A stretch of DNA of 64,000 bases, from the IMG/VR virus record IMGVR_UViG_3300029845_000007; one strand, 5' to 3'. Every line of letters starts with the position of its first letter. The first letter of the stretch is position 1. Below, piece by piece: positions 943 to 57,015 of the stretch. The notes beneath the pieces are model-generated. The model made no database searches. It saw nothing but the letters and a program-made list of their open reading frames with translations, and was not told the DNA's origin. Both the position numbers and the translations under genes were made by a program. The stretch comes from a virus.

Positions 943-3900
943 TATTCTCTATATTTATTAACATAACATTCAATCTTCTTAATCTCTATCTTAGCTGTTC
1001 CGTCATTAATTACAAAACGCACACCTAGATATTTACCATTAATAAGATTGGATTTAAATGGTTCGTAATTCTTATCAACATCAACAGTCAATTTACCAGT
1101 AAGTCTATCTATTGGATAATTAGTAACTACTTCGTTTAGAACACTACGGAAATAATTATAATTCCATTTACCATGTTCATAATAAGGTTTAGCTGTATCG
1201 AAAGTATTACGTTCATTAACAGTAATATCTTCAAGTCTACTTATCGAAGTATTACTAAACAATAGTATCTTATTACCTGCAAAGTTAATGTCGTTAGCTT
1301 TATATAAGTCATAACTTATGTAGTTAAGTACTTTAATAGTATCGTATTCAAGATTGAATAATACATCGACTACCATAGTATTATTGTTGTCTCCTACATA
1401 GAAAGGATTCTTATTAGCAGCTATCTCAAAGTCTGTATATTTAAGATAACTCAAAGGCTTTACGAATCCTAATTGACCTATAATATTCTTCTTGTTGAAG
1501 GAACTAATATACAAATTAGTTTTTGTATTATAAAATCCTCTACATAAATAAGTATGTACACTTATCCAAGTATTAGTGACGAAATTGTAACTAAGGGTAA
1601 AGTCTGAAACATCTCCCATAAAGGAACAAATCAACCGATTATTCTCCTTATCCATTCCCATTAGTATTTGAGTATTACTAGTTAAATACTCATCTAATAT
1701 AGACTGTACTCCGTCACCTAAGTCATTTAAATTCTTCTCATCAAATCTATATAACCTCTTCTTGCTTCTGTCTAAGAATATATAGCCAGCTTCATTACAT
1801 ACGTATGCTTCAAAATCTTGTAGACCACCATATCCTTTTTCACTAGTAAATACCTCTTGATAATCAATATCAAAAGCATCAGGCATTAACATTTGAACAT
1901 CTTTGTCTTTAGTATAAAGCGTATTATCTCTATTAAAGATAAACATTGAATGTTCGCAATGAGCTATAAGATAAGTGCCAATACCAATAACGTTAATGAT
2001 ATCACCTTTATTTTCGCTAATTATCTTATAAGCATTAGGTCTAAATATTCGCCATTTATTCTCTACTGATTCATCACTAATAACATCGCTTCTACGAATA
2101 GTTTGACGGTATTCTGTAACAAAGTTACTATATAATAATTCATTATAATTAATAAATTTCTTACCTGCATAATCAAGATACATACTACTTATTTCAAATG
2201 TATCATTAATAGTAGTAGGCAATAGATGAATCATACGAACATTCTGAACGAAAGAATTATTATCAGTATGAATAGTATAGTATCTTTCATCAGGAGCTGT
2301 TTTAATAGTTTTAGCAAATAATGGATATAGCGAATAATAATTAAGAATTATTCTACTTATAGGAGTATTACCTACTCTTTCACTATCCCAATGTACTCTA
2401 GGGAAATTAGGATAAAGATTAGTATTATCCGTAGCCTTCTTAGGTATTGGGTCAGTAGTATCATAGTATACACCATTACGATTAAATGCATAAACACATG
2501 CTGTCATAAAGTAATAATTATAATTATAGATATAATCTTCATAACCATAATTATAAATATCTCCTGTTGGATTAACATACTTAATATAGCCAAGTGGAAT
2601 AAGGTCTTTATTCTCCGACATATATAAGTTATCACTTATATTAAGTAATAAACCATTTACATAACCTCTACCGTTTGTAGTATAGAATCCTAACTTTAAT
2701 GACTTATTCAAAACAAGATTAACAACAGCTTCTCTACCTGCATTATTATCATCTTTGCTATCAGCCATTATAATAGTAGAACTTTTAATAGCTCTAATAT
2801 CTCCAAATTCTTCTGAAGGATTAGATTGATTGAAATTAGCATCACTACTATAATAGTCAGTAAACATAGGACCTTTATAGGCATTGCCCATAGTATAACG
2901 ACTATCAGTAATAAAGATATTACCGGCACCTGACTTCTTTATAATATCAAATTCAGGATAATAGAAACGAATATTATTAACTTGTTCATTAAATGCAGTA
3001 TTAAAATCATCATCTCTACGTACAGGAACACCTTCACTAACTAATATAGGTTCTGTCTTTTCATAAGATATAAAATATCCTACGAACTCTTTTCTCATAG
3101 GTATGTTGTCAAATAAGAACTCTATCTGATGAATTCCTCTGTGACTAGGATTTCTAGTTCCTCTAAACATACGATTGCCATTATTGTTTTTATAAAGAGC
3201 AATACCATTAGAATTATATTTAGGAAATATATTACAGAATCTTACATTACTAATGCTATCAAATATATTAACTACATCGTGTGCATTATTAGTATTAATA
3301 TTACCATATTGACTTTTATAAGCATCAAATTTAGTCTTAATATCAGATATTAGAGTGTCTTCATTTATATCCATTGTTAATGAAGTATTACCTTCATTAG
3401 CTGTACCTAAACTAATAGTCTCTGAATAACTCATAGTATTAGGAATATTAATACCGTCAGTAATATTACCATTAGGATATACATAATGTACGAAGAAGTT
3501 ATATACGCATTGATTAATTGCATACTTAGCACTATCTGAATAAAATTCTGTATCTTCAGGTTTAGTTTCACTATCTAATATCTTAGGAGAAGCAAATCCA
3601 AAAGCATAACTAATATAACCTCCGTCAGGACCACTAACACGAAGTTCTTTATACTTATCATTATTATGCAGTTCAAGGAACTCACTACCACTAGAACGAA
3701 TACCACCTTCGCTTATTGCTAATACACCGTCTTTACCAAAAGTAGGAATATCAAGAAGTAAACCGTCATAATTACTAATTCCGTCAAGATTAAACTTCTT
3801 ATTCTTTTGGAAACAAATATATAAGTTACCTAATACTCCTTCATAGGCTTTAGTACTTTCAACACTTACTCTATCATAAATAGTATAATCTTCATTACCT

Positions 3901-43397: not shown

Positions 43398-44396
43398 TTA
43401 TACAAATAAATTCATTTGTTGTTTCTGACTTCCATTAACAGTTTGATAACGAATATTAAGCATAGTATCTATTTCAGGTTCTAACCTAGATATTTTATAC
43501 CATTTAGCTGTTTCTGTCCTACTTTCATCAATATGAAAACCGTCTTTAAATCTTTGAGGTCTACCATATTGGTTAAGTATAAATGGAACTTCAATATGAC
43601 AAAGAGCTAAACCTTTACATGGTAAACCAGTAATAAGATGAACCATTTTAGCATATAAGTTTAATTGTAAACTATATGTAGTTCCATTACAATTAGGAAG
43701 ACCACCAAAAGGTGGAAGAAGAACATCTTCAGGTTTATGTACCCATTCATCTGTTTCTTGAACAGGTCTAACACTCTTATCTTTCTTATAATAACCTGCC
43801 TGAAATCTAAGACCAGTACGATTAGTTTTCCAATCTAGTATAACGAATCCGTCCTCTCTTATAGGCAATATATCAATAGTACCACTAACTAAATACTTCG
43901 GAAGAAAAGCTCCTATCTCTGAATAAATCTTATAATCTCTTTCAGTATAGAACTTAAATACTTTATATATTTCTGGGTATTTGTTTTCGGTATGGTCAAT
44001 AAAAGCATCAACATCAAGAAGTTTAGTATGACTATCAACAACATCTAAATCAGCAACAGTAACCATTTGTTTACTCTCTTGCTTATTAAGATATTTAATA
44101 GCATTAAAGAACTTACTATTTTGACGAATACCTTCTTCAAAGCTATTATGATAAACATTACCCATATCACAAGCCTTGTCTCTTATCTTATCCCATTGAT
44201 TCTTTATATCTTTAATAGAAGTATTTTCTTCTTTAGCTTTATATTTAGCCCAATAATTAGAATCGAACTTAGGAACATAAGAATGAATAATTGTAGTAGC
44301 ACTAATATAAGAATTACCACAATTATCTGTATACTTATGAGTAGGTTCATCAAAGTATAACTTCGTTTGTTTATATTCAGATTTTACAGGTATCAT
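43398..44396 (-). CDS. PD-(D/E)xK nuclease of the RecB/Cas4/lambda-Exo family (332 aa).
   Basis: The segment GTIDILPIREDGFVILDWKT followed by YSLQLNLYAKM fits the D...D/E-x-K and QhxxY core motifs. Confidence 0.5.
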   Translation of the reverse strand: MIPVKSEYKQTKLYFDEPTHKYTDNCGNSYISATTIIHSYVPKFDSNYWAKYKAKEENTSIKDIKNQWDKIRDKACDMGNVYHNSFEEGIRQNSKFFNAIKYLNKQESKQMVTVADLDVVDSHTKLLDVDAFIDHTENKYPEIYKVFKFYTERDYKIYSEIGAFLPKYLVSGTIDILPIREDGFVILDWKTNRTGLRFQAGYYKKDKSVRPVQETDEWVHKPEDVLLPPFGGLPNCNGTTYSLQLNLYAKMVHLITGLPCKGLALCHIEVPFILNQYGRPQRFKDGFHIDESRTETAKWYKISRLEPEIDTMLNIRYQTVNGSQKQQMNLFV

Positions 44397-45112
44397 TTTG
44401 TACTCTCGTATTTCCCCCGTAAAGGAGCGTTGACAATTGTATCACTTACTAATCCTAGCTCTCTCTTTTGAGCCTCTACTTGAGCTTCCAAATCACTAGC
44501 ATCTTTTGCAGACATAGACATAGTAACAACCTTACCACCTCTAGCTTTCTTTTGCTCTATTTCAAGAGCAGCAGCTTGTTTAGCTTCACCTAAAGCTTTA
44601 ATTTGATTAGGAATGATATTAATAATACCATTTAGTTTTGTCACTAAATCAATAACTGGTAAAGCATCTTCGGCTTGTAAACCAGAGTTTAACTTATTAG
44701 TAAGTTGCTCACTAATAATATTTGCTGCACGAGAACTATTATGAACAGCTCTAAGAATACTTTCAAGAGCTTCTCCTGCAACACCCATTTTATCTTCATG
44801 ATATCTATCAATAAGACGAAGAATAAGAGCATCAGGATTCCAATCAGCAGGAAGACCATAATTAGTCTTTGCAGAAGCTAATGCTTCAGAACGACTATAT
44901 CCCATTTGATTAGGTGGAGATTTAGGGTCGGCTACATAAAAGATAACTCCGGCTTCTTTAATATACCGAAGTTTATCCTCACTATTATCACGAAGATATA
45001 ATTCTCTTACATCTTTATCCTGTATCTGATAAACGTTAGGAGCATAGGGATAACCTTGCTCATTAACACTAATCATACCACTTAAATCCAATGGGGAAAT
45101 CTTCGCAATCAT
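44393..45112 (-). CDS. Hypothetical protein (239 aa).
   Basis: ORF with a 4-nt overlap with the nuclease gene. Confidence 0.6.
   Translation of the reverse strand: MIAKISPLDLSGMISVNEQGYPYAPNVYQIQDKDVRELYLRDNSEDKLRYIKEAGVIFYVADPKSPPNQMGYSRSEALASAKTNYGLPADWNPDALILRLIDRYHEDKMGVAGEALESILRAVHNSSRAANIISEQLTNKLNSGLQAEDALPVIDLVTKLNGIINIIPNQIKALGEAKQAAALEIEQKKARGGKVVTMSMSAKDASDLEAQVEAQKRELGLVSDTIVNAPLRGKYESTK
44411..44440 (+). repeat. Copy of the GC-rich element (TTTCCCCCGTAAAGGAGCGTTGACAATTGT). It overlaps the 3' end of one gene and sits 15 nt upstream of the ATG of the next.
   Basis: Read directly from the sequence. Confidence 0.8.
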
Positions 45113-45614
45113 AACCTTCTCTATTTAATAGATTAATATAGTAATCAGAATCATTAACTGGTTTCATCTTACTAAAGAAATACATATATAGTTTATAACC
45201 ACGTTCATCTCTACCAAATTGTCTAAGTTTTCGTCCAGCTAGAACTTTATTAAGTCTAATTGTACGAGATATTATAGTAGTTCTACTTTTAAATCTACGA
45301 CGTTGAACAACCCTAGACAATATAAGACCTCTTCTAAACTCTTTGTATTCTTCAGGAGTAAGCTCTTGCCTTTTCTCTTTCATTAAAGCATGATGCTCCA
45401 TTGCATCAAGTTTACCTTCATTCGGAAAGAATGAACCGATACGAGGAATTGTAACTCTCCCCATAATCTTAATTCTATTGACTACTTGACTTTCAATATC
45501 ATCAACAATATCATTAATAATAAGAGCATCTTGGGGAGTGACACCTAATAGAGCAATAATATCAGCTCTATCAAGCATCAATTCTCTCTTCTCTTTTAAA
45601 TCAATAGACGGCAT
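45069..45614 (-). CDS. Possible IHF/HU-like DNA-binding protein (181 aa).
   Basis: The beta-arm-like segment GRVTIPRIGSFFP recalls the HU/IHF fold. crAss-like phages are known to carry an IHF-like gene in this module. The assignment is weak. Confidence 0.3.
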   Translation of the reverse strand: MPSIDLKEKRELMLDRADIIALLGVTPQDALIINDIVDDIESQVVNRIKIMGRVTIPRIGSFFPNEGKLDAMEHHALMKEKRQELTPEEYKEFRRGLILSRVVQRRRFKSRTTIISRTIRLNKVLAGRKLRQFGRDERGYKLYMYFFSKMKPVNDSDYYINLLNREGYDCEDFPIGFKWYD

Positions 45615-45617
45615 CTA

Positions 45618-46307
45618 TTATATTTGTAATAAGTTTGTAGCAACAATAAACTTTTGAGGTTTACCATTAGGAATAAGACCTTCAATAGTATTCTGTCCTT
45701 GAATATCAGAAAGACGAACAATCTTATAACCAACACAAACTACTGTTTCAGCAATAGTAGTAATCAATTTACCATTGTCACCTTTCTTTTCAATAGTCGC
45801 AGGACTTACCTCATTACCAAGTAAACTAATAACAGAACCAGTACTAACCTTACGGAATATCTCACCACGAGCAATACTTATATTTAAGTCTTGGTCACTA
45901 CGAATAAATTCAGCAAGATTATAAGGAGTAAGTTCATTGCTACGAGGATTACAATCTATACCCATAAATACGTCAGAAGGAGCGACATATAAGAAACGAT
46001 TAAGCAAAGCTCTATCGCCTTCTTTAACATCATCACTATAATTAGCTTTAACTAATATGAACTTAGTATTACCAGTACCTTTTAAGTCAGGATTAATAAT
46101 TTCACGAAGTTTAGCAGTCTGAATAATAGCAACAATACCAAAATGCTTGAAAGGAGTAATATTCTTAACTCTTTCAGAAACATATTGGAAATCAATTTCT
46201 GCCATGTGTTGAGGAACTAGGAAAGTCTCTCCTTTAGTTTTGTTCTCTAAGTGTAGCATAATTACTTTAATTAGATTATTAATATTATTAATTAAGTTGA
46301 CTAACAT
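45618..46307 (-). CDS. First gene of the minus-strand operon. Hypothetical protein (229 aa).
   Basis: ORF immediately downstream of the divergent control region. Confidence 0.55.
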   Translation of the reverse strand: MLVNLINNINNLIKVIMLHLENKTKGETFLVPQHMAEIDFQYVSERVKNITPFKHFGIVAIIQTAKLREIINPDLKGTGNTKFILVKANYSDDVKEGDRALLNRFLYVAPSDVFMGIDCNPRSNELTPYNLAEFIRSDQDLNISIARGEIFRKVSTGSVISLLGNEVSPATIEKKGDNGKLITTIAETVVCVGYKIVRLSDIQGQNTIEGLIPNGKPQKFIVATNLLQI

Positions 46308-46689
46308 TACTAACTGTAATATAACCGTCAGTCATTAATAGCACAAGTATACGAATAATATCTATATCATCAATATCTAACTAGTTAAAAAACCTTTAGA
46401 ATTGTATTCTCTGTATAATTCACATCCATTCACACTAGTTCACATTAGTATACACTCTAATACAAGTCCACTACTTAACTAAAATATCGACTAAATCTTA
46501 CCATTCTATTTTTACAATCCTAATGCTAAATCTTCGGACTCTTCGATAGAAGAGGAGAAAGGTAATACACAATAAGACACAATAGACAACTAATACTATA
46601 TAATATAAGTAAGACCAATTAAGGACTTAAAGGAATTAATTAGACTAATAGGACTAACTAATAAGATAATTCTTCTATAAGAAGAGTTA

Positions 46690-46870
46690 GACTACTAACA
46701 ACAATAGATATACAGAAGGGAATTAGAAATACTATTAGAACTAACTAATGTATATAGACTTAGAAATAGGACTGGAACTACTGTTAGAAATAGAATTAGG
46801 AATAGGACTAATAATGAACTTAGAAATAGGATTAGGACTATTAGAAGAAATAAACTTAGAGGTACTACTA
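46690..46870. repeat. Degenerate tandem array of TTAGAAATAGGAnTAGGACTA-like units (4–5 copies). Iteron-like.
   Basis: Read directly from the sequence. The ORF 46748..47008 is just the translation of this array. Confidence 0.75.
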
Positions 46871-46978
46871 TTAGTGCTGCCCCACAAAATAATATTTTTC
46901 ATGAGTATATTTTTATCGAGACGAAGCTCCTACCCTGATAGCCCCCTGCTCTCAAACCAATTCCAATACCCCCGTCAA

Positions 46979-47005
46979 GACCAAATGACTTTAAACATAT
47001 TGCTA
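46979..47005 (+). promoter_or_regulatory. First copy of the conserved 27-bp box (GA)CCAAATGACTtTAAACATATTGC. Candidate early promoter or operator.
   Basis: A near-identical sequence recurs at 47368 and 47404. Confidence 0.4.
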
Positions 47006-47007
47006 TA

Positions 47008-47187
47008 ATGTTTAATTTAATACTAATGTTTATGATATTCTTGATATTGTTATTGGTTGCAGTTGTTATGACTACTGCAACTTATCGTTCTGTTGTTAAT
47101 AAACAGAGACGTGATTGGAGAGAACATGGTCGTGCAGGCGAGACTTATGAACAATTTTGTTCACGTTATTATACTAGATACGTATGA
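47008..47187 (+). CDS. Small hydrophobic protein (59 aa, MFNLILMFMIFLILLLVAVVM...).
   Basis: Manual translation. It lies just below the ORF-track cutoff. Its stop overlaps the next small ORF as ATGA. Confidence 0.25.
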   Translation: MFNLILMFMIFLILLLVAVVMTTATYRSVVNKQRRDWREHGRAGETYEQFCSRYYTRYV

Positions 47188-47366
47188 GTACTCGTGATAA
47201 GATTAAAGTGGTACACTTGGCATTAAGTATGCTAGGTGTGCCAGTATTCATACATCTAAGTTACATTAAATTGTATGATAATCATGTGAATAGTTTCTTA
47301 ATACTATTGGTCGTACTAGTATTGATACCAGACATAAATAATATAGTAAAAGAACTATTGAACTAG
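47184..47366 (+). CDS. Small membrane protein (60 aa).
   Basis: ORF with a hydrophobic helix. Confidence 0.25.
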   Translation: MSTRDKIKVVHLALSMLGVPVFIHLSYIKLYDNHVNSFLILLVVLVLIPDINNIVKELLN

Positions 47367-47367
47367 T

Positions 47368-47437
47368 CAAACCAAATGACTATAAACATATTGCAGTTAC
47401 TATCAAACCAAATGACTATAAACATATTGCCATTGTG
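47368..47437 (+). promoter_or_regulatory. Tandem duplication (36-bp period, 2 copies) of CAAACCAAATGACTATAAACATATTGC. It lies 70–140 bp upstream of gene 47506. Candidate promoter or operator.
   Basis: Read directly from the sequence. Confidence 0.45.
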
Positions 47438-47505
47438 TGTGTGGTTAGGATGCACATTGGTTGAACAGTTGCTAACCGATTTATAACATTTAATTTATTT
47501 GTATT

Positions 47506-48180
47506 ATGGGAACAAGAGTTAATGATGCAGCTAGAAAAGCTGCTGAAGAAGCTGCTAAGAAAGCTGCCGAAGAAGCTAAAGCTAACGCTAGTAATGATGC
47601 TAGTAACGATGCTAGTAATGATGCACGTATCGTTGATTTGTCCGAGTATCACGGAAAAGACGCAGACGATATTACTCGTCTGTTGCTTGACCGTCCTGAT
47701 TTCGAGAATCACGATAGCTTGATGATTACTAATATCATTGATAATAGCAGTCGTTATGCAGGTGCTCTTACCATTGTTGTTAACCGTAACCTTCCACAGT
47801 TTGTGAAAGATGCTGCAAGTGGTGATTATGTCGAGTCTGTAACTCGTAATATCTTTACCACTCGTATTCAGCTATCTGCAATACTGAAAGGTCAAGGCGA
47901 ACCAATGCTTGCCAATGCTGTTATGACTGCACCGTTATCAGTGCTGCACGTTATCTTCAAGAAGGCACGTATTAGCGTGCTTGGACACGTGCTTGGAGCA
48001 GGTGAGATATTTGTAAATCCGTATGCCAGTAAAATGGCTAAGGAGGAACGTGTTAATGAACACGACCGTTACGAGTATTTCCCATACGAACTAAGTATGC
48101 GTAGTTTGTCCCTTGCGGACGAAATGCTCGTAGCCGACATGTTGGCTAAATACCAGCCTGATGCAGAGAGTGCTGCTTAA
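47506..48180 (+). CDS. GC-rich foreign-looking protein (224 aa) with an N-terminal Ala/Glu/Lys-rich helix and (NDAS)3 repeats. Function unknown.
   Basis: ORF whose codon usage and GC content (roughly 45–50%) differ sharply from the flanking DNA. A perfect 10-bp stem with a GAAA tetraloop hairpin follows the stop at 48191–48214. Confidence 0.65.
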   Translation: MGTRVNDAARKAAEEAAKKAAEEAKANASNDASNDASNDARIVDLSEYHGKDADDITRLLLDRPDFENHDSLMITNIIDNSSRYAGALTIVVNRNLPQFVKDAASGDYVESVTRNIFTTRIQLSAILKGQGEPMLANAVMTAPLSVLHVIFKKARISVLGHVLGAGEIFVNPYASKMAKEERVNEHDRYEYFPYELSMRSLSLADEMLVADMLAKYQPDAESAA

Positions 48181-48338
48181 CCAGTTACGTAGGAGAGAGA
48201 AATCTCTCCTACTAAACTAAGAATACACCATTCGGCACGTGTTCGACAATACTACCGACTTATGCTCGCCGTCCGGCAAAGCCTTCGGGCACAGCCGTCA
48301 GGCAAAGCCACTAAGGATTGGAAACGACACTAGTCACC

Positions 48339-48390
48339 TGATAAGCGAAATGCTACAACTGATAAGCGAATCCAACCAACTGATAAGCTA
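48339..48390 (+). repeat. Three direct repeats CTGATAAGCGAA / CTGATAAGCGAA / CTGATAAGCTA at 20–21 bp spacing. Iterons.
   Basis: Read directly from the sequence. The third copy overlaps the stop of the wHTH gene. Confidence 0.8.
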
Positions 48391-48903
48391 TTTGTCCGAA
48401 TACAGTCTCATGTAATCCGATACGAACTTGTTTCTATCTCCCATGAACATCATATTATGGTTTATGATATAGACATTGTTCTTATCATTAATAGCTTTAG
48501 CTATAAAGTTAGCATCGATTAGTTGACGGATACCGTCACTTATTCTCTGTTGACTAACAGACAATTCACCAGCAATCTTAGTTTGGTTAAGTACTATCCA
48601 GTTACAACCGAAACCTATATTCCTATATATGTAATTCAACATGGATAAACCATGGGTCTTTAAATATCTTAGGTTAGACATTCCATCGAAGTACAACTGC
48701 ATAAAGTTACCTGTATATCTAACTTTATCATCTTCGATTACAACAATTGTCTTACCTGTCTTATTAGCCCATTGTTTAAGCTCGTCAAGACTGTCGTCAG
48801 AACAATCTTTAGGATTAATATTAAAAGGAAATACAGTAGGTTTGATAAGATTGTCCACTGGTTGGACTTTAGCATTAGCTTTAGCATTTGTTTCTACTTT
48901 CAT
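48388..48903 (-). CDS. Winged-HTH DNA-binding protein (171 aa). Either a small Rep-like initiator (RepL-like) or an autoregulated repressor.
   Basis: The segment ELSVSQQRISDGIRQLIDANFI is HTH-like. Iterons lie at its 3' side and two palindromic operators in its promoter region. Confidence 0.6.
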   Translation of the reverse strand: MKVETNAKANAKVQPVDNLIKPTVFPFNINPKDCSDDSLDELKQWANKTGKTIVVIEDDKVRYTGNFMQLYFDGMSNLRYLKTHGLSMLNYIYRNIGFGCNWIVLNQTKIAGELSVSQQRISDGIRQLIDANFIAKAINDKNNVYIINHNMMFMGDRNKFVSDYMRLYSDK

Positions 48904-48945
48904 AATTGTTAATTTATAGTTAAAAACTCATTTTCGGCTTCTAAA

Positions 48946-49008
48946 TTACACAGATTTGCGTGTAAAAACAAGCATTACACCTAGTATTTTACACAGATTT
49001 GCGTGTAA
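48946..49008. promoter_or_regulatory. Two copies of the 20-bp palindromic operator TTACACagatttgcGTGTAA, 43 bp apart, with an extra ATTACAC half-site between them.
   Basis: Perfect 6-bp inverted half-sites with an 8-bp spacer. They lie 40–105 bp upstream of the wHTH gene start. Confidence 0.7.
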
Positions 49009-49059
49009 TTTGAAATTCGTAACTGACTGATAATGACCGATTTAACATAAAATTAACAC

Positions 49060-50330
49060 GCTATAACAAGATAGGGAATCTTGTAAAAAATAGATTTTTA
49101 TTTTGTATATGCAAATATAATACTATTTTTTTTATTAGCTCACCTATTCGATGACTATTGTCGTAGACAATAGGAAGAAGCTCATACAATAACAACAGTA
49201 GTATCAACAATAGTATTATCAACATCAGTAGTATGAATAGTATGAATAGTATTATCAACATCAATAGGAAGAAGACTATTACTAATATCAATAGCATCAA
49301 TAGTAGTATGAATAGTAAGATATAGAGATGATAGCGAAACTACATTCCCTTAACTCAATATAACTCCTCACACTTACTAAATTAAACCTCTTAATGTTTA
49401 CTTTTGAACCTATTCAAAATCCATATAGAGTATAAATCAAATTTATTCGATTGTACTATTATCGCTATGTTTCCGATACTATATTTCCGATACTCTATCG
49501 TCATTGTTACTATCGTCATTGTTATTATATTATATTATTATACTATCACATGTTATTACTATTACTATTAGGTTTTAATCTAATCTCACTATTGCCAATC
49601 TCACTATATACTATTAGTATTATATCTTGGTTGTATTGTATGAGGTCTAGTTCCTATTCTTACAGAATAGTTCACTAGTATATTAATACTATATATAACA
49701 TCTGATAACGAGAATACCAATAGATTGAATATAAGGCTATATAATAGACTGGATAGTATTATTACCAATAGATTGGATAATAGAATAAGTATAGTAATAT
49801 GTATAAATATGTATAGATATGTATTACTATTAATATCTAGATTACTATTTGGTTTGTTACTTAGCTGGTCTAGTCCCGCTCGCAAAGCTCGCTTTTCTCC
49901 CCCATAAAGGAGCGTGATTGCTGTTACATCTTCACCTTTTATTTACCATTTAACTTATATCATTATGAATACCGATATTTATTTCTTTATAATAACTGTA
50001 TTACTATTTGTTATTACTACTCTCTTACTGAATAACTATCTCATTGATAAGAAGTCTAATATTTTGTCTATGACAATATTTATTATAGCTGTTATGGCTA
50101 TCGTTATTATCTGTGTTGCAATATTTAATCTTTCTAGTATATGACTACTTATCAATTCCATATATTTCTATCTTTAATTGGAATAGTTATATGTCTGTTG
50201 TATTTGATGTTTAATTACCTTTCTTATAAGAAGGTTTTTATCGTCCGTTCTTTAGTTCAAACTATAATAACTTATATAATAGTTATTAGCTTTATTCGTT
50301 TACTATATCGTACTATATTATTATGATATA
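49060..50330. repeat. AT-rich repeat-dense region and probable replication origin. It contains the palindrome CTATTGTCgtaGACAATAG (49156–49175). Several short motifs each occur as two or three direct copies: agtagtatgaatagta, tattatcaacatca, tttccgatact, atcgtcattgtta and accaatagattgRata.
   Basis: Read directly from the sequence. It lies in the strand-switch region. The ORFs called here are low-complexity hydrophobic translations of AT-rich repeats. Confidence 0.6.
49897..49925 (+). repeat. Copy of the GC-rich element TCTCCCCCATAAAGGAGCGTGATTGCTGT. Its AAGGAG-N4-GTG provides the start of ORF 49914..50144.
   Basis: Read directly from the sequence. Confidence 0.8.
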
Positions 50331-50378
50331 GATTCATTACTTTTAAAATTAAATTCTTAATAATTAATACATGTATTT

Positions 50379-51278
50379 ATGAAAGCTGTTGTAAATGATA
50401 AAAATCATCTAACTTTTGTATCTCATCTTAATGGAGTTACTATTGTTGAATCTAGTGGTTTTATTATCGATTTAGATTATCAATGTCTTACTTCTATTTG
50501 TGAGATTTCTGATATTGGTAATAATTATAGTATTGCTGAATCTAATAGAATCTCTGAATTAGAGAAAACTATTTCTGAATTAGAAGCCGATGTTGCTAAT
50601 AAGTCTACTCAAATTAGTAAACTGTCTAGTGAATTAAATCTTCGTGCTAGAGTTATTAGTGAGAAGAACGAAGAGATTGAACAACTTAAATCTGATATTA
50701 TTAAGTTCCAAGCTGATATTGCTAATTTTCAGGCTTGTGCTGCTAATGTTTCTGATATTGAATATGAACTGAATAAATGTCGTGAAACAAATAATGCACT
50801 TACAGAAAAGTTAGAAAGTAAAACTTCTGATTTAGCTGAAAGAACTTATTGGTTCAGATATTATAGACGAGCATTTCGTGCTGTTAAGGAGTATCTTAAG
50901 CCTAATGAAAAATATGGTTTAGATTCAAGCGGTTATAATATTGTTAATAGTATTGATAGTAAATTTATAATATCATTTAAAGATACAAGTATTGCTAGTA
51001 AAGCATTTAATGAGTTAAGATATTCTATTTCTCCAAGAACTGTATTACTCAAGTATGAAAATGATATTGTTGAATATAATGTCGATGCTATGAATATCTA
51101 TTTTATTGAAGCTAATACTCCTACGGTTATTCGTAAGTTTAATGATGAAAACTTTAGTATTACTTGTTGCGATGTTTATACTGCCGAGATTACTAATGCT
51201 CTTCTTAATTGTGGTTTTCCTGCTAGTGATATTGTTTCTACTTATAAATCATATATAGCATTTAGTAATATCAATTAA
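50379..51278 (+). CDS. Early protein with a central coiled coil (299 aa).
   Basis: First long plus-strand ORF after the control region. Confidence 0.6.
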   Translation: MKAVVNDKNHLTFVSHLNGVTIVESSGFIIDLDYQCLTSICEISDIGNNYSIAESNRISELEKTISELEADVANKSTQISKLSSELNLRARVISEKNEEIEQLKSDIIKFQADIANFQACAANVSDIEYELNKCRETNNALTEKLESKTSDLAERTYWFRYYRRAFRAVKEYLKPNEKYGLDSSGYNIVNSIDSKFIISFKDTSIASKAFNELRYSISPRTVLLKYENDIVEYNVDAMNIYFIEANTPTVIRKFNDENFSITCCDVYTAEITNALLNCGFPASDIVSTYKSYIAFSNIN

Positions 51279-54036: not shown

Positions 54037-54402
54037 ATGGGATTAAGTTTCAAACTATCAGCGGTAAATGAGGAACAGAAAATTCCTCGTGAGAAAGTAA
54101 TAATGCAGATTGTTACTGGAACTATCGTTCTACATGATAACATGTATAAGTTTAAACCTAAAGATAGTGATGAATTTATTACGTTATCTGAACGTTCGTA
54201 CTCATGTAAAGGTTTTAAGACAATATATACTCGTGCATTAGATAATTATGGTAGACCTACTAAAATTGTTAGATGTACTGATGCTTATTGTGTTATGCCT
54301 AGCTGTTATATTCCATTTAAGATAGGATTACCTGTTAAGGGTTATATACTTAAATGTCGTGATAATATTGATAGATTCTTACTAAAATGCAATGAATTTT
54401 GA
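54037..54402 (+). CDS. Hypothetical protein (121 aa).
   Basis: ORF. Confidence 0.5.
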   Translation: MGLSFKLSAVNEEQKIPREKVIMQIVTGTIVLHDNMYKFKPKDSDEFITLSERSYSCKGFKTIYTRALDNYGRPTKIVRCTDAYCVMPSCYIPFKIGLPVKGYILKCRDNIDRFLLKCNEF

Positions 54403-54883
54403 AAAGTTTGATGATGCTAAGAAAGACGATAAAGTCTTAAATAGTTTTACTCGTGACCAAAAGATTGCTTATGAAAACCTAGTAGCTTTTATTGAGAAAG
54501 GTTATGTTGCAGGTGATTATAAACGTGCTCTTATTGGCTCGGCAGGTACAGGAAAAACATATATGATACGTGAAGTAATTAGACGATGCGGATTATCTAA
54601 ATCCGTTATTGGTCTTGCAGCTCCTACACATAAAGCTGCTCGTGTACTTCGTGCATCTACTGGATATTCTACGTCTACTGTGGCTAGTGATTTAGGTTTA
54701 AGACTTAATACTGATGTTACTGATTTTGATATTAATAATCCTCCTTTTGACCCATTAGCTGAAAAGAAGATTAAGCAATATAAGTTATATATTGTTGATG
54801 AAGCGTCTATGATTGGTATTAATCTTAAAACTCTTATAGAAAGAGAATGTGAACAGTTTGGTTGTATGCTTATTTATATGGGT
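54392..54883 (+). CDS. SF1 (RecD/Dda/Pif1-like) DNA helicase, exon 1. It carries Walker A GSAGTGKT and Walker B LYIVDEASM.
   Basis: The motifs are read directly. The exon ends in ...ATG GGT, whose last nucleotide U is the group I 5' splice site. Confidence 0.7.
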
Positions 54884-56049
54884 AAATAGTTATTGCCCAG
54901 TTTAAACTCTTCTAATTGCTGGAAACTCGTGAAGGTAATAGTACTACAACATAAGTTGAAAAACTAAGTGTGAATGTTAGAAAAACTATTATTATATGAC
55001 AATCAGCAGCGAAGTCTCTAAATTATGTTCATTTACATAATAAGAGAAACGTTCATCGACTATCCCGTAAGGGAGTACAATTCTATGGAATTGGAAACGG
55101 AGAGAGTTGTATATTTGCAATTTACTCCTTATATTTACATAAATTTTTAAAATGTAAATATTATGAGCAAAAAAGAAACTCCAAAAATGTATGGTTTAGA
55201 ACATAAGTTAAATTCTAAGTGTGTTTATATTCATTTTATTAAATCTATTAATATTCCTATTTATATAGGAGAAGGAAATGTACAAAGAGCTTTTGATTTT
55301 ACTAATAGAAATAATAAATGGAAAGAACTAGTTAGCAATCTTAATGATGTTCATGTTGAAATAGTTGCTATTGATATTAATAAAGAAGAATGTGTAGAAA
55401 TAGAAAAGCAGCTAATAAAACTATATAAAGAAAGAGGATTTGAACTTGTTAATTGTAATAATGGAGGTAGTTGTATAGGAACTTTTGGAGAAGATAATTA
55501 TTTTTATAATAAACATTTGTTTGGTAAAGACAATGGTAATTATGGAAATAAATATTCTAAAAATCCTTTATCCATTGAAGTTATTCAGTTAGATATATTT
55601 GGAAATATTATTAAGAAGTGGAGTTCTGCACAAGAAGCAGAAGAAATAGGTGGATATATTGCTAGTTGTATTAATAGTTGTTGTAATGGTAAACGTCAAC
55701 TACACAATAATTATCAATGGATATTTGCTTATAATTATAATCCTAATAAATCTTATGAATATATTCCTAAAGGAACTTCTATGAGAATTTATTTAGCTAT
55801 TGGTATAAGAGATAATAAATCTTATATTCATGGTATATATAATTCTAGTAATGAACTTACTAATGAAGGATTTAATCCTAAACTAGTTCAACAAGTTGTT
55901 ACTGGTTATAAAAAGTCTCATAAAGGTTTTGCTTTTGTTGATTTCTTTAGATTAACTAAAGACCAACAAGAAAAATATAAAGAACAAGTTATTGCAAAAT
56001 TATATAGCTAAGATATAGTCAGACTATTATAGAAATATAGTAGGTTATG
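54884..56049 (+). mobile_element. Group I self-splicing intron (1166 nt) interrupting the helicase gene. It carries a GIY-YIG homing endonuclease ORF.
   Basis: Splicing at 54883|56050 rebuilds helicase motif III as GDNYQLQPV. The P1 helix pairs exon TGGGU with intron GCCCA (intron nt 12–16) through a U.G wobble at the splice site. The P10 helix pairs 3' exon GAUAAC with intron GUUAUU immediately 5' of the guide sequence. The intron ends in G (omega G at 56049). Confidence 0.7.
55163..56011 (+). CDS. GIY-YIG homing endonuclease with a C-terminal NUMOD3-like DNA-binding motif (282 aa).
   Basis: The segment CVYIHF...PIYIGEG has the conserved Arg and Glu downstream. SAQEAEEIGGYIASCINSCCNGKRQLHNNYQWIF matches a NUMOD3 motif. 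Asn/Lys-rich, T4 Seg/I-Tev-like composition. Confidence 0.75.
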   Translation: MSKKETPKMYGLEHKLNSKCVYIHFIKSINIPIYIGEGNVQRAFDFTNRNNKWKELVSNLNDVHVEIVAIDINKEECVEIEKQLIKLYKERGFELVNCNNGGSCIGTFGEDNYFYNKHLFGKDNGNYGNKYSKNPLSIEVIQLDIFGNIIKKWSSAQEAEEIGGYIASCINSCCNGKRQLHNNYQWIFAYNYNPNKSYEYIPKGTSMRIYLAIGIRDNKSYIHGIYNSSNELTNEGFNPKLVQQVVTGYKKSHKGFAFVDFFRLTKDQQEKYKEQVIAKLYS

Positions 56050-57015
56050 GATAACTATCAACTTCAACCAGTTAAAGAATCTCGTTCACGTTGTTTTGAT
56101 AATGTTAAGTTTTATACTCTTAGACAGATTGTTAGACAAGAAGAAGATAATCCTGTTAGTGAGTTATTAAAGATACTAAGAAAAGATATTGATAATAGGA
56201 GTTGGAAATTCCTAGAATATATCAATAAAAACAGATATGCTTTCGATTCAACTCAAACTAAAGGATATTATACTTGTGGTGCATACGAGTTTCAATCTCT
56301 TGTAATAGACGGATTTTATAATGAAGAGTTTACTAGAGATGTTGATACTTGTCGATTAATAACTTATACTAATAAATCTGTATCTGAATGGAATAAATTT
56401 ATTCGTAACAATATCATCGAAGGTAGTGATAAAGCAATTCTAACTCGTAATGATTTAGTAATGTCTTATAATACTTTTGTTGATGAGTTTAAAGATACTA
56501 TTATTGTAAATTCTGAAGATTATATAATACATGATATTAAGAATTTTACTAATAAAGATGAAATCTTTGGATTCAATGTTACGTTCATTCAAGTTAATGG
56601 TGGTAATAGAACTAAACCTTTATTTGTAGTAGACCATTCTAATTTAAATAATGTTATGCTTTATTATAAGTTAGGTGAAACTTATATTCAAAATGCAATT
56701 AATGCAGAGAAATATAATAGAAGTAAGCGTTGGAAGGAATACTATGACTTTAGAGAGAGGAACTTGTTACTAGTTAACTTATTAGATAGGTCTACTGGTA
56801 AGATTAAGTTTAGTCGTGACTTAGATTATGGATTTGCTCTTACAGCTAATAAAGCTCAAGGAAGTACTTATTTTGATGTATATGTAGATATAAATGATAT
56901 TGTATTTGATATGCGTACTGGTAATCCGTGGGGAAATATAGATGAAACTCTTCGTAGATTATATACTGCTTGTAGTAGATGCAAAAATCGTTTATATTTG
57001 TGTTACGGTAAATAA
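56050..57015 (+). CDS. SF1 DNA helicase, exon 2. It carries motif III (G)DNYQLQPV, motif V ALTANKAQGSTY and motif VI YTACSRCKNRL.
   Basis: The motifs are read directly. It is in frame with exon 1 after intron removal, giving a 486-aa product. Confidence 0.7.
   Translation, partial: DNYQLQPVKESRSRCFDNVKFYTLRQIVRQEEDNPVSELLKILRKDIDNRSWKFLEYINKNRYAFDSTQTKGYYTCGAYEFQSLVIDGFYNEEFTRDVDTCRLITYTNKSVSEWNKFIRNNIIEGSDKAILTRNDLVMSYNTFVDEFKDTIIVNSEDYIIHDIKNFTNKDEIFGFNVTFIQVNGGNRTKPLFVVDHSNLNNVMLYYKLGETYIQNAINAEKYNRSKRWKEYYDFRERNLLLVNLLDRSTGKIKFSRDLDYGFALTANKAQGSTYFDVYVDINDIVFDMRTGNPWGNIDETLRRLYTACSRCKNRLYLCYGK

Follow-up and report, generated by a model that had tools for sequence, protein, structure and literature searches.

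What role is played by the ~4 kb of repeat-rich DNA from which two opposite sets of phage genes depart? The DNA analysed here (IMG/VR record IMGVR_UViG_3300029845_000007; 64,000 nt, hereafter the window) is, judging from its sequence, a Jahgtovirus-like crassvirus, a crAss-like gut phage, and shares ~86–89% identity with crAss002 and cr107_1. An earlier note had placed a probable replication origin and early-promoter hub at positions 46308–50378, between leftward and rightward genes. The divergent arrangement was borne out: all gene-like ORFs of at least 80 aa to the left of 46307 lie on the minus strand, those from 50379 on lie on the plus strand, and this architecture is kept in ~50 related crassvirus contigs. 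Read in this comparative way, the 4-kb stretch is a conserved junction at which two opposite gene arms start, and it is a mix of real small genes, strongly conserved DNA or RNA signals, variable repeats and, in this phage, an insertable replication-initiator gene of plasmid type (RepL) with binding sites of its own. Comparison of the ~50 contigs yielded a conserved set (three 28-bp boxes, a leader with its hairpin, three CTGATAAGC repeats and one palindrome with a CAATAG cluster) and a hypervariable one (a tandem array at 46.7 kb and 13-bp repeats). A function as replication origin and early-transcription hub is plausible, unproven, and for the origin the evidence is circumstantial: the junction, the constrained noncoding repeats and a RepL protein with cognate sites speak for it, whereas the array first taken for iterons, the supposed lack of genes, the GC skew and the DnaA boxes lend it no support.

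The ORFs of this region had been dismissed as translations of repeats or tiny hydrophobic peptides, a view contradicted by a 224-aa gene, a 171-aa RepL gene and three small coding ORFs. Two of the latter encode small membrane proteins (p59, 47008–47187, and p60, 47184–47366, both on the plus strand) conserved across lineages at 73–100% (tblastn), and the third, p61 (50141–50326, plus strand), is a small hydrophobic ORF conserved at 55–100%. All three are real genes because their substitutions are biased to the third codon position (118/124/313, 229/133/481 and 54/19/90 at positions 1/2/3, respectively). Together with p61, a candidate small hydrophobic ORF conserved in some lineages (49965–50144, plus strand) opens the long rightward arm (49965–50326); it showed no third-position bias (15/13/10, from only four usable homologues). 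The 224-aa gene (47506–48180, plus strand), equivalent to crAss002 gp80, is present in all relatives with 82–96% identity. A protein search retrieved 1676 homologues of its product and no Pfam domain, Pfam, PHROGs and NCBIfam yielded no significant match to a family, and the AF2 model was unusable (pLDDT 43).

A near-invariant leader (47429–47505, plus strand) containing a hairpin with covariation precedes the 224-aa gene. In the main hairpin (47442–47478), positions 47442–47448 pair with 47472–47478 and enclose an invariant 23-nt loop; a second stem may form between 47434–47440 and 47450–47456, which would make an H-type pseudoknot, that is, two interleaved stems, accompanied by an outer stem (47429–47432/47458–47461). 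Across 18 distinct leader sequences, 99.4% of the cells were paired, as against 28–45% when the partners were slid by 1–3 columns. Three pairs had changed on both sides (GGTTAG/CTAACC to AGTCGG/CCGACT), and the other stem exhibited one-sided changes only, with the pair always kept. A coding cause of this conservation was considered and excluded, since the second haplotype has an in-frame TAG in the overlapping ORF. Downstream of the 224-aa gene, the end of a short rightward operon is probably marked by a GNRA hairpin (48189–48212, plus strand) whose 10-bp stem is capped by a GAAA tetraloop and keeps its pairing in three compensatory haplotypes (GTAGGAGAGA/TCTCTCCTAC, GTAGGAGAGG/CCTCTCCTAC and GTAGTGGAGA/TCTCCACTAC). 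An Rfam search with the leader and the noncoding stretches gave no match.

The repeated box described in the earlier note, with three copies of which the last two form a 36-bp tandem, was confirmed. The motif CCAAATGACT(A/T)TAAACATATTGC occurs on the plus strand at 46981, 47372 and 47408, within 28-mers starting at 46976, 47367 and 47403; the p60 stop codon is followed directly by boxes 2 and 3 (47367–47430, plus strand), which are identical over their 28 bp and lie 36 bp apart. Shuffled sequence contained 0 matches, and no further copy was found within the 64 kb with up to 3 mismatches allowed. The exact 23-mer was retrieved in 53 IMG/VR stretches, always at the junction and in 1–3 exact copies per genome, and the 36-bp pair was seen 42 times. 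Box 1 (46976–47003) terminates a conserved C-rich block (46901–47003, plus strand) made of two conserved segments around an 18-nt spacer, which is fixed in length and occurs in ~6 sequence haplotypes. If a C variant is counted as a box, the block is found in 38/39 lineages and box 1 in nearly all of them, with variable small ORFs inserted directly after it; the p59 start overlaps the stop codon of an ORF crossing box 1 (TAATG). RNAalifold detected no consensus structure on either strand of the block. The boxes differ from the Bacteroides TTTG/TAnnTTTG promoter, and sigma-70-like sites did not exceed shuffles; in the crass-like phage phi14:2, no common motif has been found upstream of the early transcripts.

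To the left of these elements, the intergenic block preceding the first leftward gene (45618–46307, minus strand) is well conserved over ~400 nt (46308–46715) in an alignment of 14 lineages. It contains three 10-bp TTCACAnnnn repeats (46419–46448; detected by TRF with period 10 at 46429–46449), a hairpin CTCTTC-gata-GAAGAG (46539–46554) with a compensatory change to CTATTC..GAATAG in other lineage sequences, a second hairpin TCTTCT-ata-AGAAGA (46671–46685) replaced by a different one at the same place in other lineages, and a conserved GACTACTAACAACAATAG (46690–46707). Next to it lies a purine-rich array of TTAGAA/TAGGA units (46716–46876). The earlier note had described it as a 180-bp TTAGAAATAGGAnT array (46690–46870) and counted it as iterons marking an origin. 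A tandem array does exist, but it is degenerate (TRF: 46720–46835, period 12, 9.6 copies, only 59% matches; a second row at 46784–46860 has period 36). Its 12-mer, allowing ≤2 mismatches, ranges from 0 to 8 copies among 39 unique relatives, its sequence is unalignable between lineages, and the ATG of the minus-strand ORF overlapping it is not conserved. In these comparisons the array behaves VNTR-like, hypervariable between lineages, and is the least conserved part of the region; its reading as origin iterons is not supported. Conservation of the repeats in relatives, which the earlier note had proposed as a check, was found for the boxes, the iterons described below and the palindrome, but not for this array, hypervariable or absent in relatives.

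A better-conserved set of iterons lies downstream of the short operon. Beyond three 13-bp GC-rich repeats GCCGTCnGGCAAA (48268–48309; TRF), present in 0 to ~6 copies among lineages, a conserved block (48322–48390, plus strand) contains three CTGATAAGC at 48338, 48359 and 48380, exactly 21 bp apart, the third overlapping the RepL stop codon. These are the only three copies in 64 kb, and 2 or 3 copies are found, with conserved spacers, in 24/24 genomes spanning the interval, including those without RepL; hence RepL is not the protein that binds them. Between the iterons and a near-invariant palindrome block (49141–49186) is a variable slot with at least 6 content types among lineages, of which the block forms the right border. 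The perfect palindrome CTATTGTCgtaGACAATAG (49155–49173; CTATTGTC-gta-GACAATAG) is present in exactly one copy in each of the 24/24 genomes. It is followed by AT-rich repeats of 9–27 bp (49187–49320, plus strand) with the palindrome half-site CAATAG, which occurs 6 times within ~150 nt, more densely than anywhere else in the window (mean 0.5 per 300 nt). TRF reported tandem repeats with periods 9/12/15/18/27 at 49191–49309; copy number varies within the haplotype group, and there is also a second family of haplotypes. Further AT-rich direct repeats (49465–49830) comprise 14- and 15-bp tandems at 49465–49528 and 10/22-bp repeats at 49784–49824 (TRF); nowhere in the window is the DNA duplex less stable, and of the five 100-nt segments with the lowest stability in the 64 kb, three begin at 50263, 49737 and 49525. 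The AT-rich direct repeats and perfect palindrome noticed initially were thus upheld. A GC-rich element, CCCGCTCGCAAAGCTCGCTTTTCTCCCCCATAAAGGAG (49866–49912, plus strand), corresponds to one arm of an inverted repeat of which other crassviruses have both; its one copy in the window does not fold there, in contrast with the L006-type genomes, where both arms form a ~30-bp hairpin (z = −7.2) adjoining RepL.

In the window, the slot is occupied by a cassette with boundaries at 48386 and 49140–49148 (blastn). Its 171-aa gene (48388–48903, minus strand) matches the Pfam RepL family (PF05732) with 30 bits, above the cut-off of 20.3. This minus-strand gene had been overlooked in the first reading, as had the CTGATAAGC iterons, the two 20-bp sites described below, the 13-bp repeats and the leader and GNRA hairpins. 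Among its 45 nearest representative homologues, 26 also match RepL, and MarR-type families are few (MarR_2 3, HTH_24 3, MarR 1). The AF2 core (residues 83–147) is a winged helix, for which Foldseek retrieved only generic winged helices, with the best scores for CodY and MarR repressors. Many plasmid homologues are annotated as MarR, and the homologues on small 4–10 kb plasmids include genes named RepL. The protein could be a repressor only, given these Foldseek matches and plasmid annotations. The upstream half of the cassette (48904–49148, minus strand) carries two 20-bp sites, a very AT-rich stretch and a conserved Bacteroides-type −7 box TATATTTG (49112–49119, minus strand), TAnnTTTG having just one other match on that strand of the region. 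The sites are identical copies of TTACACAGATTTGCGTGTAA (TTACAC-N8-GTGTAA; 48946–48965 and 48989–49008), 43 bp apart. In another lineage, whose protein is 73% identical, both have changed to TTATAC-N8-GTATAA, so their symmetry is kept. This co-variation with the protein suggests that they are its cognate sites. Between lineages, the noncoding part of the cassette is 70% identical and the gene 72–74%. The cassette is absent from crAss002, cr107_1 and ~20 other relatives, and in the closest relative (L005) the RepL gene has a TGG-to-TGA nonsense change; it is therefore dispensable and cannot be the essential phage origin.

Similar arrangements are found in other crassviruses. The 171-aa RepL is 32% identical to gp43 ('RepL') of Carjivirus communis and 29% to its gp88, also a RepL, which is the first plus-strand arm gene at that phage's own junction; two 34-nt repeats with a spacing of 43 bp lie ahead of it, the same layout as in the window. 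In C. communis, each of the two RepL genes is preceded by GC-rich inverted repeats similar to the CCCGCTCGCAAAGCTCGCTTTTCTCCCCCATAAAGGAG type, and the cr11_1 RepL homologue likewise has repeated and inverted sites upstream. Three crassvirus genera have RepL genes at their arm junctions, and in C. communis an origin has been predicted adjoining RepL (PMC10983915).

Nucleotide composition was less informative. The cumulative G−C curve has a broad trough at ~46.5–50.5 kb with its minimum at 50172, so the GC-skew check proposed in the earlier note did point to the junction, but the skew tracks gene orientation exactly, including local reversals at plus-strand genes and at RepL, and as an argument for an origin it is fully confounded by it. 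The GC-skew inversion has been read as two replichores, the replication mode being unknown (PMC10136315). DnaA boxes are not enriched in the region: only two were found, with one mismatch each and both inside a repeat.

We consider the locus to be a conserved divergent control junction of a Jahgtovirus-type crassvirus with four functional layers (operon, core, slot and RepL cargo), a reading to which we assign a probability of roughly 0.5. It joins the observed anatomy, conservation, covariation, family match and cassette boundaries to binding events, promoter activity and origin firing that we infer. The first layer would be a short rightward operon (46976–48212) comprising box 1, the two membrane-protein genes, boxes 2 and 3, the leader, the 224-aa gene and the GNRA hairpin. 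In it, the 28-bp boxes may be where a sequence-specific factor or polymerase acts to initiate or control rightward transcription, and the leader hairpin, possibly a pseudoknot, may act on RNA or on extruded DNA. As second layer, a noncoding core would unite the three CTGATAAGC iterons two helical turns apart, the palindrome, the CAATAG cluster and the most easily melted DNA; among candidates for the phage's own replication origin or a master regulatory site, this iteron-palindrome core ranks first. The slot from iterons to palindrome would be the third layer, its cargo differing between lineages, and the fourth, here, the cargo itself, a self-contained RepL-type cassette. Its winged-helix dimer would bind the two 20-bp sites upstream of its own gene and downstream of the host-type −7 box, resulting in autoregulation. 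Plasmid RepL proteins and C. communis offer an analogy for a further role: RepL may fire an accessory, plasmid-like origin in the neighbouring AT-rich DNA.

It is possible, if rather doubtful, that the region is instead purely a transcriptional control region with an accessory ('moron') slot, where boxes, iterons and palindrome are promoters, operators or terminators, the RepL-like protein is a MarR-like autorepressor devoid of any replication role, and the phage origin is elsewhere or not sequence-defined. Each conserved element does sit at an operon boundary, several lineages have the iteron block immediately before a slot ORF start, and the paired palindromes between −7 box and gene are operator-like; the repressor-like structural matches, the MarR-annotated plasmid homologues, the dispensable cassette and a skew explained by gene orientation fit as well. 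Against this stand the above-threshold Pfam match, the predominance of RepL over MarR types among the nearest homologues, the RepL-named genes on small plasmids and the recurrence at junctions of three genera; moreover, phased iterons, a palindrome with its half-site cluster and the least stable duplex together exceed what promoters need. Less probable is that the noncoding stretches 46308–46975 and 49150–49960 are templates for abundant early ncRNAs, the repeats being RNA features. In phi14:2, two long intergenic regions near early genes are transcribed above most genes from the earliest time point, and the window offers ~800 nt without conserved ORF from the palindrome to the next gene as well as a strong strand asymmetry (purine-rich array, then C-rich block). 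However, the C-rich block lacks conserved secondary structure on either strand, Rfam gave no match, and the arrays are hypervariable or replaced between lineages. Such transcripts would be compatible with the four-layer junction.

Very improbable, in our opinion, is a packaging start (pac) site or physical genome ends, with boxes and iterons as small-terminase binding sites. Repeat arrays are typical of pac regions, which counts in its favour, as do the headful packaging from a pac site predicted for crAss002 and the assemblies broken inside the region (in window coordinates, the cr107_1 record starts at ~49296, L003 at ~48254 and L004 at ~47503). Nevertheless, where a circular assembly is opened is arbitrary, and assemblies are also interrupted by repeats or strain variation; a direct terminal repeat was not seen, a scan of ORFs within and next to the region (43398–51278) returned no match to a terminase family, and the boxes are oriented with the rightward genes, at operon starts. 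An equally slim chance attaches to the repeats as a whole being functionless products of chance or slippage in AT-rich noncoding DNA. For the conserved elements this explanation is refuted by the absence of boxes from shuffles and by the near-invariance, amid diverged or replaced flanking DNA, of the boxes, the leader, the RepL sites and the blocks containing the iterons and the palindrome. It still holds for the variable arrays: copy number and sequence change freely in the 46.7-kb array, in the 13-bp repeats and in some of the 49.2-kb repeats.

A megablast search with positions 46000–50700 matched only two phages, Bacteroides phage crAss002 (86%) and the uncultured phage cr107_1 (88.7%), both members of the genus Jahgtovirus (Intestiviridae, Crassvirales). 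Genes are on the minus strand left of 46307 and on the plus strand from 50379 on, where they include replication functions. Given this opposite gene orientation, the region in between (46308–50378) can be placed at the point where the two arms of a crass-like phage genome diverge, and an earlier note based on the sequence alone was right about its location and general nature. Using the window proteins in tblastn searches, we found an identical order of elements in all contigs bearing a repeated 28-bp box: a leftward gene encoding 229 aa, 0.7–1 kb of non-coding DNA, box 1, two small genes, boxes 2 and 3, a 224-aa gene, 1.4–2.2 kb of mostly non-coding DNA and, finally, small ORFs and a 299-aa gene. 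As a whole, the region represents the conserved control junction between the divergent arms in this phage genus.

The ORFs of the junction had been dismissed in the earlier note as translations of repeats or tiny peptides, which is contradicted by the 224-aa gene (47506–48180), a RepL-like gene and three small genes. The 224-aa gene was present in all relatives and a protein search retrieved 1676 homologues of its product. This protein had no family match in Pfam, PHROGs or NCBIfam, no PDB relative and no recognisable DNA-binding or initiator domain, and its AF2 model was unusable (pLDDT 43). The three small plus-strand ORFs, those of the membrane-protein genes p59 (47008–47187) and p60 (47184–47366) and that of p61 (50141–50326), showed a third-position substitution bias (118/124/313, 229/133/481 and 54/19/90 substitutions at codon positions 1/2/3), which indicates that they are real genes. 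No such bias was detected in another small ORF, at 49965–50144 (15/13/10, with four usable homologues). A tRNA scan found no tRNA, and a search against Rfam 15 (45500–51000, E-values up to 1) gave no relevant match, just two chance snoRNA hits located away from the elements described here. In the conserved region upstream of the leftward genes, we also observed three 10-bp TTCACAnnnn repeats one helical turn apart (46419–46448) and two hairpins: a small one (46539–46554) that shows a compensatory change between lineages, and another (46671–46685), the position of which is occupied by an unrelated hairpin in other lineages.

The repeated box pointed out in the earlier note is real. Its 23-nt copies, on the plus strand at 46981, 47372 and 47408, are part of 28-mers starting at 46976, 47367 and 47403. 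Shuffled sequences contained no box match, and no fourth copy occurs within the 64 kb even at three mismatches. The exact 23-nt box was found in 53 IMG/VR stretches from ~48 contigs, mostly of 90–97 kb, and in every contig its copies were confined to a single cluster of ~1 kb. Counting a C variant, box 1 was present in 38 of the 39 unique lineages. Before it lies a C-rich block in which two conserved parts surround a spacer that is always 18 nt long but varies in sequence; no consensus RNA structure was found for this block on either strand. Directly behind box 1, different small ORFs are inserted in some lineages. The interval from the p60 stop to the start of the 224-aa gene, which comprises boxes 2 and 3 and a 76-nt leader, varied hardly at all across 35 unique sequences, and less than the coding DNA on its flanks. 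A box search in 185,579 bacterial genomes yielded only a crassvirus contig and a match in Nitrincola. The former (QAMT01000020.1, 16.5 kb, from a MAG labelled Phascolarctobacterium sp., a Firmicute; locus L071) carries three boxes with the typical crassvirus spacing and is most likely a misbinned phage fragment. The latter is an exact 23-nt box inside a relA/spoT-type gene (frame KPNDYKHIA) of the gammaproteobacterium Nitrincola tibetensis (locus L070, 6289–6311); with ~0.07 such chance matches expected in the collection, we took it as a chance match.

All the boxes point rightward, at the heads of gene groups, and could be sites for a phage-specific polymerase or factor. The 28-bp boxes that lie 36 bp apart are out of helical phase. 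We found no full match to the Bacteroides primary-sigma promoter (TTTG / TAnnTTTG) in 45500–51000, and the boxes lack the -7 motif; sigma-70-type sites were uninformative, with 24 occurrences versus 28 ± 5.6 in shuffles. In phage phi14:2, the injected virion polymerase transcribes the early genes, no motif was found in common upstream of them, and two long intergenic regions show high transcription. Another reading is that the three 28-bp boxes might be promoters of the virion RNA polymerase that Intestiviridae inject, and the first such motif to be recognised. The promoters of the virion RNA polymerase of coliphage N4 are small hairpins with a 3-nt loop. The window resembles N4 in having a few identical elements at the head of the first-transcribed genes, in a phage that injects its own RNA polymerase, and in the succession of one box and a DNA/RNA hairpin. 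However, the window box is not palindromic and contains no inverted repeat, unlike the N4-type motif with its 5–7 bp stem and 3-nt loop, and the only hairpin, with a loop of 23 nt, follows box 3 only. A coding explanation for the boxes and the leader was rejected because the second haplotype of the leader hairpin puts an in-frame TAG into the ORF running through boxes 2 and 3. This ORF (47376–47486), which contains MTINIL twice in frame and is broken by TAG in half of the lineages, is probably non-coding. Another ORF, through box 1 (46901–47008), reads QDQMTLNILL followed by a stop that overlaps the p59 start as TAATG.

The leader hairpin is located 12 nt downstream of box 3 and consists of a 7-bp stem (47442–47448 paired with 47472–47478) closing an invariant loop. 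Its stem occurs as two haplotypes, GGTTAG/CTAACC and AGTCGG/CCGACT, which amount to three compensatory pairs; these changes represent one linked haplotype switch and, therefore, count as few events. A second stem (47434–47440/47450–47456), with one-sided changes only and pairing always kept, would make the leader an H-type pseudoknot of two interleaved stems. Paired cells represented 99.4% in the leader, versus 28–45% when the partners were slid by 1–3 columns. The leader hairpin had no Rfam match. Another hairpin lies 3' of the 224-aa gene (48189–48212), with a 10-bp stem, a GAAA loop and three haplotypes, all of them paired.

Beyond the 224-aa gene, three CTGATAAGC repeats overlooked in the earlier note are found at 48338–48388, exactly 21 bp apart, and thus form a set of direct repeats in helical phase. 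They end a 70-bp block that was kept, spacers included, in 24 of the 24 genomes spanning the interval. Since these phased iterons are kept in genomes without RepL, RepL is probably not the initiator that binds them. The perfect palindrome at 49155–49173, already recognised in the earlier note, belongs to a nearly invariant block present in exactly one copy per genome. To its right, six CAATAG half-sites occur in ~150 nt, the densest such cluster in the 64 kb (mean, 0.5 per 300 nt). The AT-rich direct repeats also exist, as short-period arrays at 49191–49309, 49465–49528 and 49784–49824; those right of the palindrome fall into two haplotype families, with copy number varying within each of them. 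The array at 46.7 kb that had been taken for iterons is present but degenerate, with a period of 12 at 59% matches and a period of 36. Lineages have between 0 and 8 recognisable units of it, and their arrays defy alignment with one another, so that the supposed iteron array is in fact the least constrained element of the region. A coding explanation for this array was also discarded, as its minus-strand start codon is not conserved and there is no alignment between lineages. Three 13-bp GC-rich repeats at 48268–48309, likewise unreported before, vary from 0 to about 6 copies across lineages.

Homology between lineages ends right after the third CTGATAAGC and returns at the palindrome block. 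The slot thus delimited contains at least six types of DNA: two short ones without ORF, three with related ORFs of 59–76 aa, and one with the RepL cassette. The ORF-less types contain (TA)n runs. The related ORFs (in the contigs L001, L023, L018 and their relatives) begin with M(K/E/D)I..(I/V)I(N/D)(I/V) and contain (I/V)TY.D; they include gp79 of crAss002, and in cr107_1 the copy bears the annotation PH-domain-like. The RepL cassette of the window (48386–49148, 760 bp) comprises a minus-strand gene (48388–48903, 171 aa) and its upstream part, and was found neither in crAss002 nor in cr107_1, at both the DNA and protein levels. In a second lineage (contigs L006–L015), the same cassette, at 74% identity, closes the rightward arm at a distance of ~28 kb from the boxes, next to proteins unrelated to those flanking it in the window. 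The 240-nt upstream part is 70% identical between lineages, versus 72–74% for the coding part. This upstream part harbours two identical 20-mers, TTACACAGATTTGCGTGTAA, at 48946 and 48989, which the earlier note had also missed. Both switch symmetrically, from TTACAC..GTGTAA (N8) to TTATAC..GTATAA, in the lineage with a 73%-identical protein, so they are repeated sites that adjoin the gene and co-vary with its product. Such a symmetric change is the pattern that would be expected of the sites of a dimeric DNA-binding protein co-evolving with it. RepL travels as a single unit, a discrete cassette, with its own co-evolving sites. The gene is further preceded by one conserved -7 box of the Bacteroides type, TATATTTG (minus strand, 49112–49119). 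In the closest relative, L005 (92–94% nucleotide identity), codon 45 of RepL is TGA instead of TGG (4133–4135, equivalent to 48769–48771 of the window), which may have arisen by nonsense mutation or by sequencing error, or be a stop that is recoded; with a start at an internal Met, a winged-helix protein of 104 aa could still be made. The lack of RepL in most relatives, together with this TGG-to-TGA change, indicates that RepL is dispensable.

The affiliation of this protein was supported by a match to the Pfam family RepL (PF05732) over residues 58–159 (30 bits for a cut-off of 20.3, E = 4.4e-7), also precomputed for 7 of 13 close homologues. A profile search in 1.84 billion representative proteins gave 387 hits; among the nearest 45, which we examined, 26 matched RepL and only a few MarR-type families. 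The AF2 model had a pLDDT of 58.7 overall and of 65–88 in residues 83–147, where it predicts a winged helix with the pattern H-strand-H-H-strand-strand. Foldseek searches with this model retrieved winged-helix proteins only; CodY and MarR ranked first, and staphylococcal Rep initiators came further down. These being generic winged helices, the fold does not separate an initiator from a repressor. A sequence search against the PDB gave no significant hit. In plasmids, tblastn produced weak hits in 4–10 kb Bacillus and Priestia plasmids, annotated as MarR, HTH or RepL. The window protein thus shares with the RepL of small plasmids (PF05732) a family-level match, a small winged-helix protein and homologues on such replicons; however, there is no plasmid context here, and identities are of 25–30% with weak E-values. 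The best phage matches outside the genus were the RepL-annotated gp43 (32%) and gp88 (29% over 79 residues) of C. communis. RepL can also be likened to the lytic replicon of phage P1, with its RepL and oriL, a comparison drawn in part from a preprint (Schmidtke et al. 2024, PMC10983915).

A series of features favours the putative origin that the earlier note postulated in this region, namely the GC-skew trough, the unstable duplex, the phased iterons, the palindrome with its half-sites and the RepL-type gene. The retention of the iterons without RepL and the dispensability of RepL are neutral or weigh against it. The cumulative GC skew had its minimum at 50172, in a flat trough extending from 46.5 to 50.5 kb and, therefore, at the region itself; however, the curve tracks gene orientation in detail, so the two causes are inseparable and the skew is uninformative alone. 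In a review, the skew inversion was read as reflecting two replichores and the replication mode was called unknown (PMC10136315). By duplex stability, the 100-nt segments starting at 49525, 49737 and 50263 are among the five weakest of the 64 kb; they are 1.1–1.9 kb away from the iterons, and promoters typically have DNA of this kind too. DnaA boxes were not enriched: two occur in the region, each with one mismatch and both inside a repeat unit, for a total of 23 in the window. Iteron-type origins with Rep autoregulation are found in theta plasmids and phage lambda. As in these systems, the window has repeats phased at two helical turns, inverted-repeat sites before the putative initiator gene and AT-rich DNA nearby, whereas it differs from them in having only three iterons, retained without RepL, and in lacking an enrichment of DnaA boxes.

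In the model that we find best supported, a short rightward operon would be controlled by the three identical boxes and the structured leader, and the conserved iteron-palindrome core would be the best candidate for the phage origin or a master regulatory site. This core would enclose a cargo slot, occupied here by a portable RepL-type cassette predicted to at least regulate itself through its two palindromic sites, and which may add a plasmid-like origin. A bolder reading is that the RepL gene, the 240 nt upstream and the AT-rich DNA together constitute a portable, self-contained plasmid-type replicon that moves between the two arm junctions of crassvirus genomes and, where present, lets the phage persist as an episome; we regard it as rather unlikely, with about one chance in five. 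If true, such a portable replicon would account genetically for how crAss-like phages persist over long periods without lysogeny. RepL-linked origins have been proposed for one species only, in the same preprint (PMC10983915). In this species, C. communis, RepL genes are the first and last of the rightward arm, an origin predicted by Ori-Finder adjoins the first one, and a phage-plasmid lifestyle was proposed (PMC10983915).

The junction of C. communis resembles that of the window in its affiliation to the Intestiviridae, its two-arm layout, its GC-skew switch and the presence of a RepL-family gene. This gene, gp88, opens the rightward arm where the two arms diverge; just before its start are two 34-nt direct repeats 43 bp apart, the same spacing as that of the window 20-mers. 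By contrast, the RepL gene of the window is encoded by the opposite strand and occupies a variable cargo slot 1.4 kb into the rightward arm, and the putative binding-site sequences are unrelated in the two phages. The RepL homologue of cr11_1 also has repeated and inverted sites upstream, with sequences unrelated to those of the window. Near gp88, a perfect 17-nt GC-rich inverted repeat encloses AT-rich repeats, whereas the window has only one arm of the GC-rich element. More closely related are the L006-type RepL, with 73% protein identity and a shared unit of gene plus ~240 nt upstream containing two palindromic sites, and, at the protein level, gp43 of C. communis. These two genes differ from the window RepL in being last in the rightward arm, co-oriented with it and adjacent to a complete GC-rich hairpin; the window copy of the L006-type cassette is at the divergent junction and inverted.

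GC-rich inverted repeats precede gp42/gp43 in C. communis and adjoin the L006-type RepL (fold z-score -7.2). We observed a family of such elements, with the core CTCCCC(R/C)(A/T)nRAGGA and GCGAGC-type flanks, at RepL genes or arm junctions in three Intestiviridae genera; its members are located at 3662–3757 in L006, 1111–1241 in L069 and 2243–2379 in L073 (loci used for comparison) and at 49866–49912 in the window. In the L006 lineage, the element occurs at the divergent junction as one arm and at the convergent junction as a pair. For the arm at 49866–49912 no second arm was found in the window, and it does not fold.

For the genus of crAss002, which has a cultured member, these results provide a parts list that separates invariant elements (boxes, leader hairpin, iteron block and palindrome) from variable ones. 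A natural comparison is offered by close relatives in which the cassette is present, absent or altered by a nonsense codon, and short defined fragments are now available for origin, promoter and protein-binding tests.

Among the first 15 related loci, about 7 have a contig or record end no more than a few kb from the junction or from the RepL cassette (the start of the cr107_1 record and the contig ends of L003, L004, L009, L012, L014 and L015), which exceeds what random breaks in 95-kb genomes would give. This clustering could derive from repeats, strain heterogeneity or real ends, and crAss002 has been reported to be headful and circularly permuted. We set aside the clustering of assembly breakpoints as evidence for genome ends, since it is uninterpretable without reads.

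Finally, to the right of the junction, a RecD/Pif1-like helicase gene looks split (54392–57015), with an AAA_30/AAA_19 N-terminal part at 54392–54889 and a UvrD_C_2 C-terminal part at 56047–57015. Between them lies an ORF of 282 aa (55163–56011) with a weak I-HmuI NUMOD-like match, which suggests an insertion of the homing-endonuclease or intron type.
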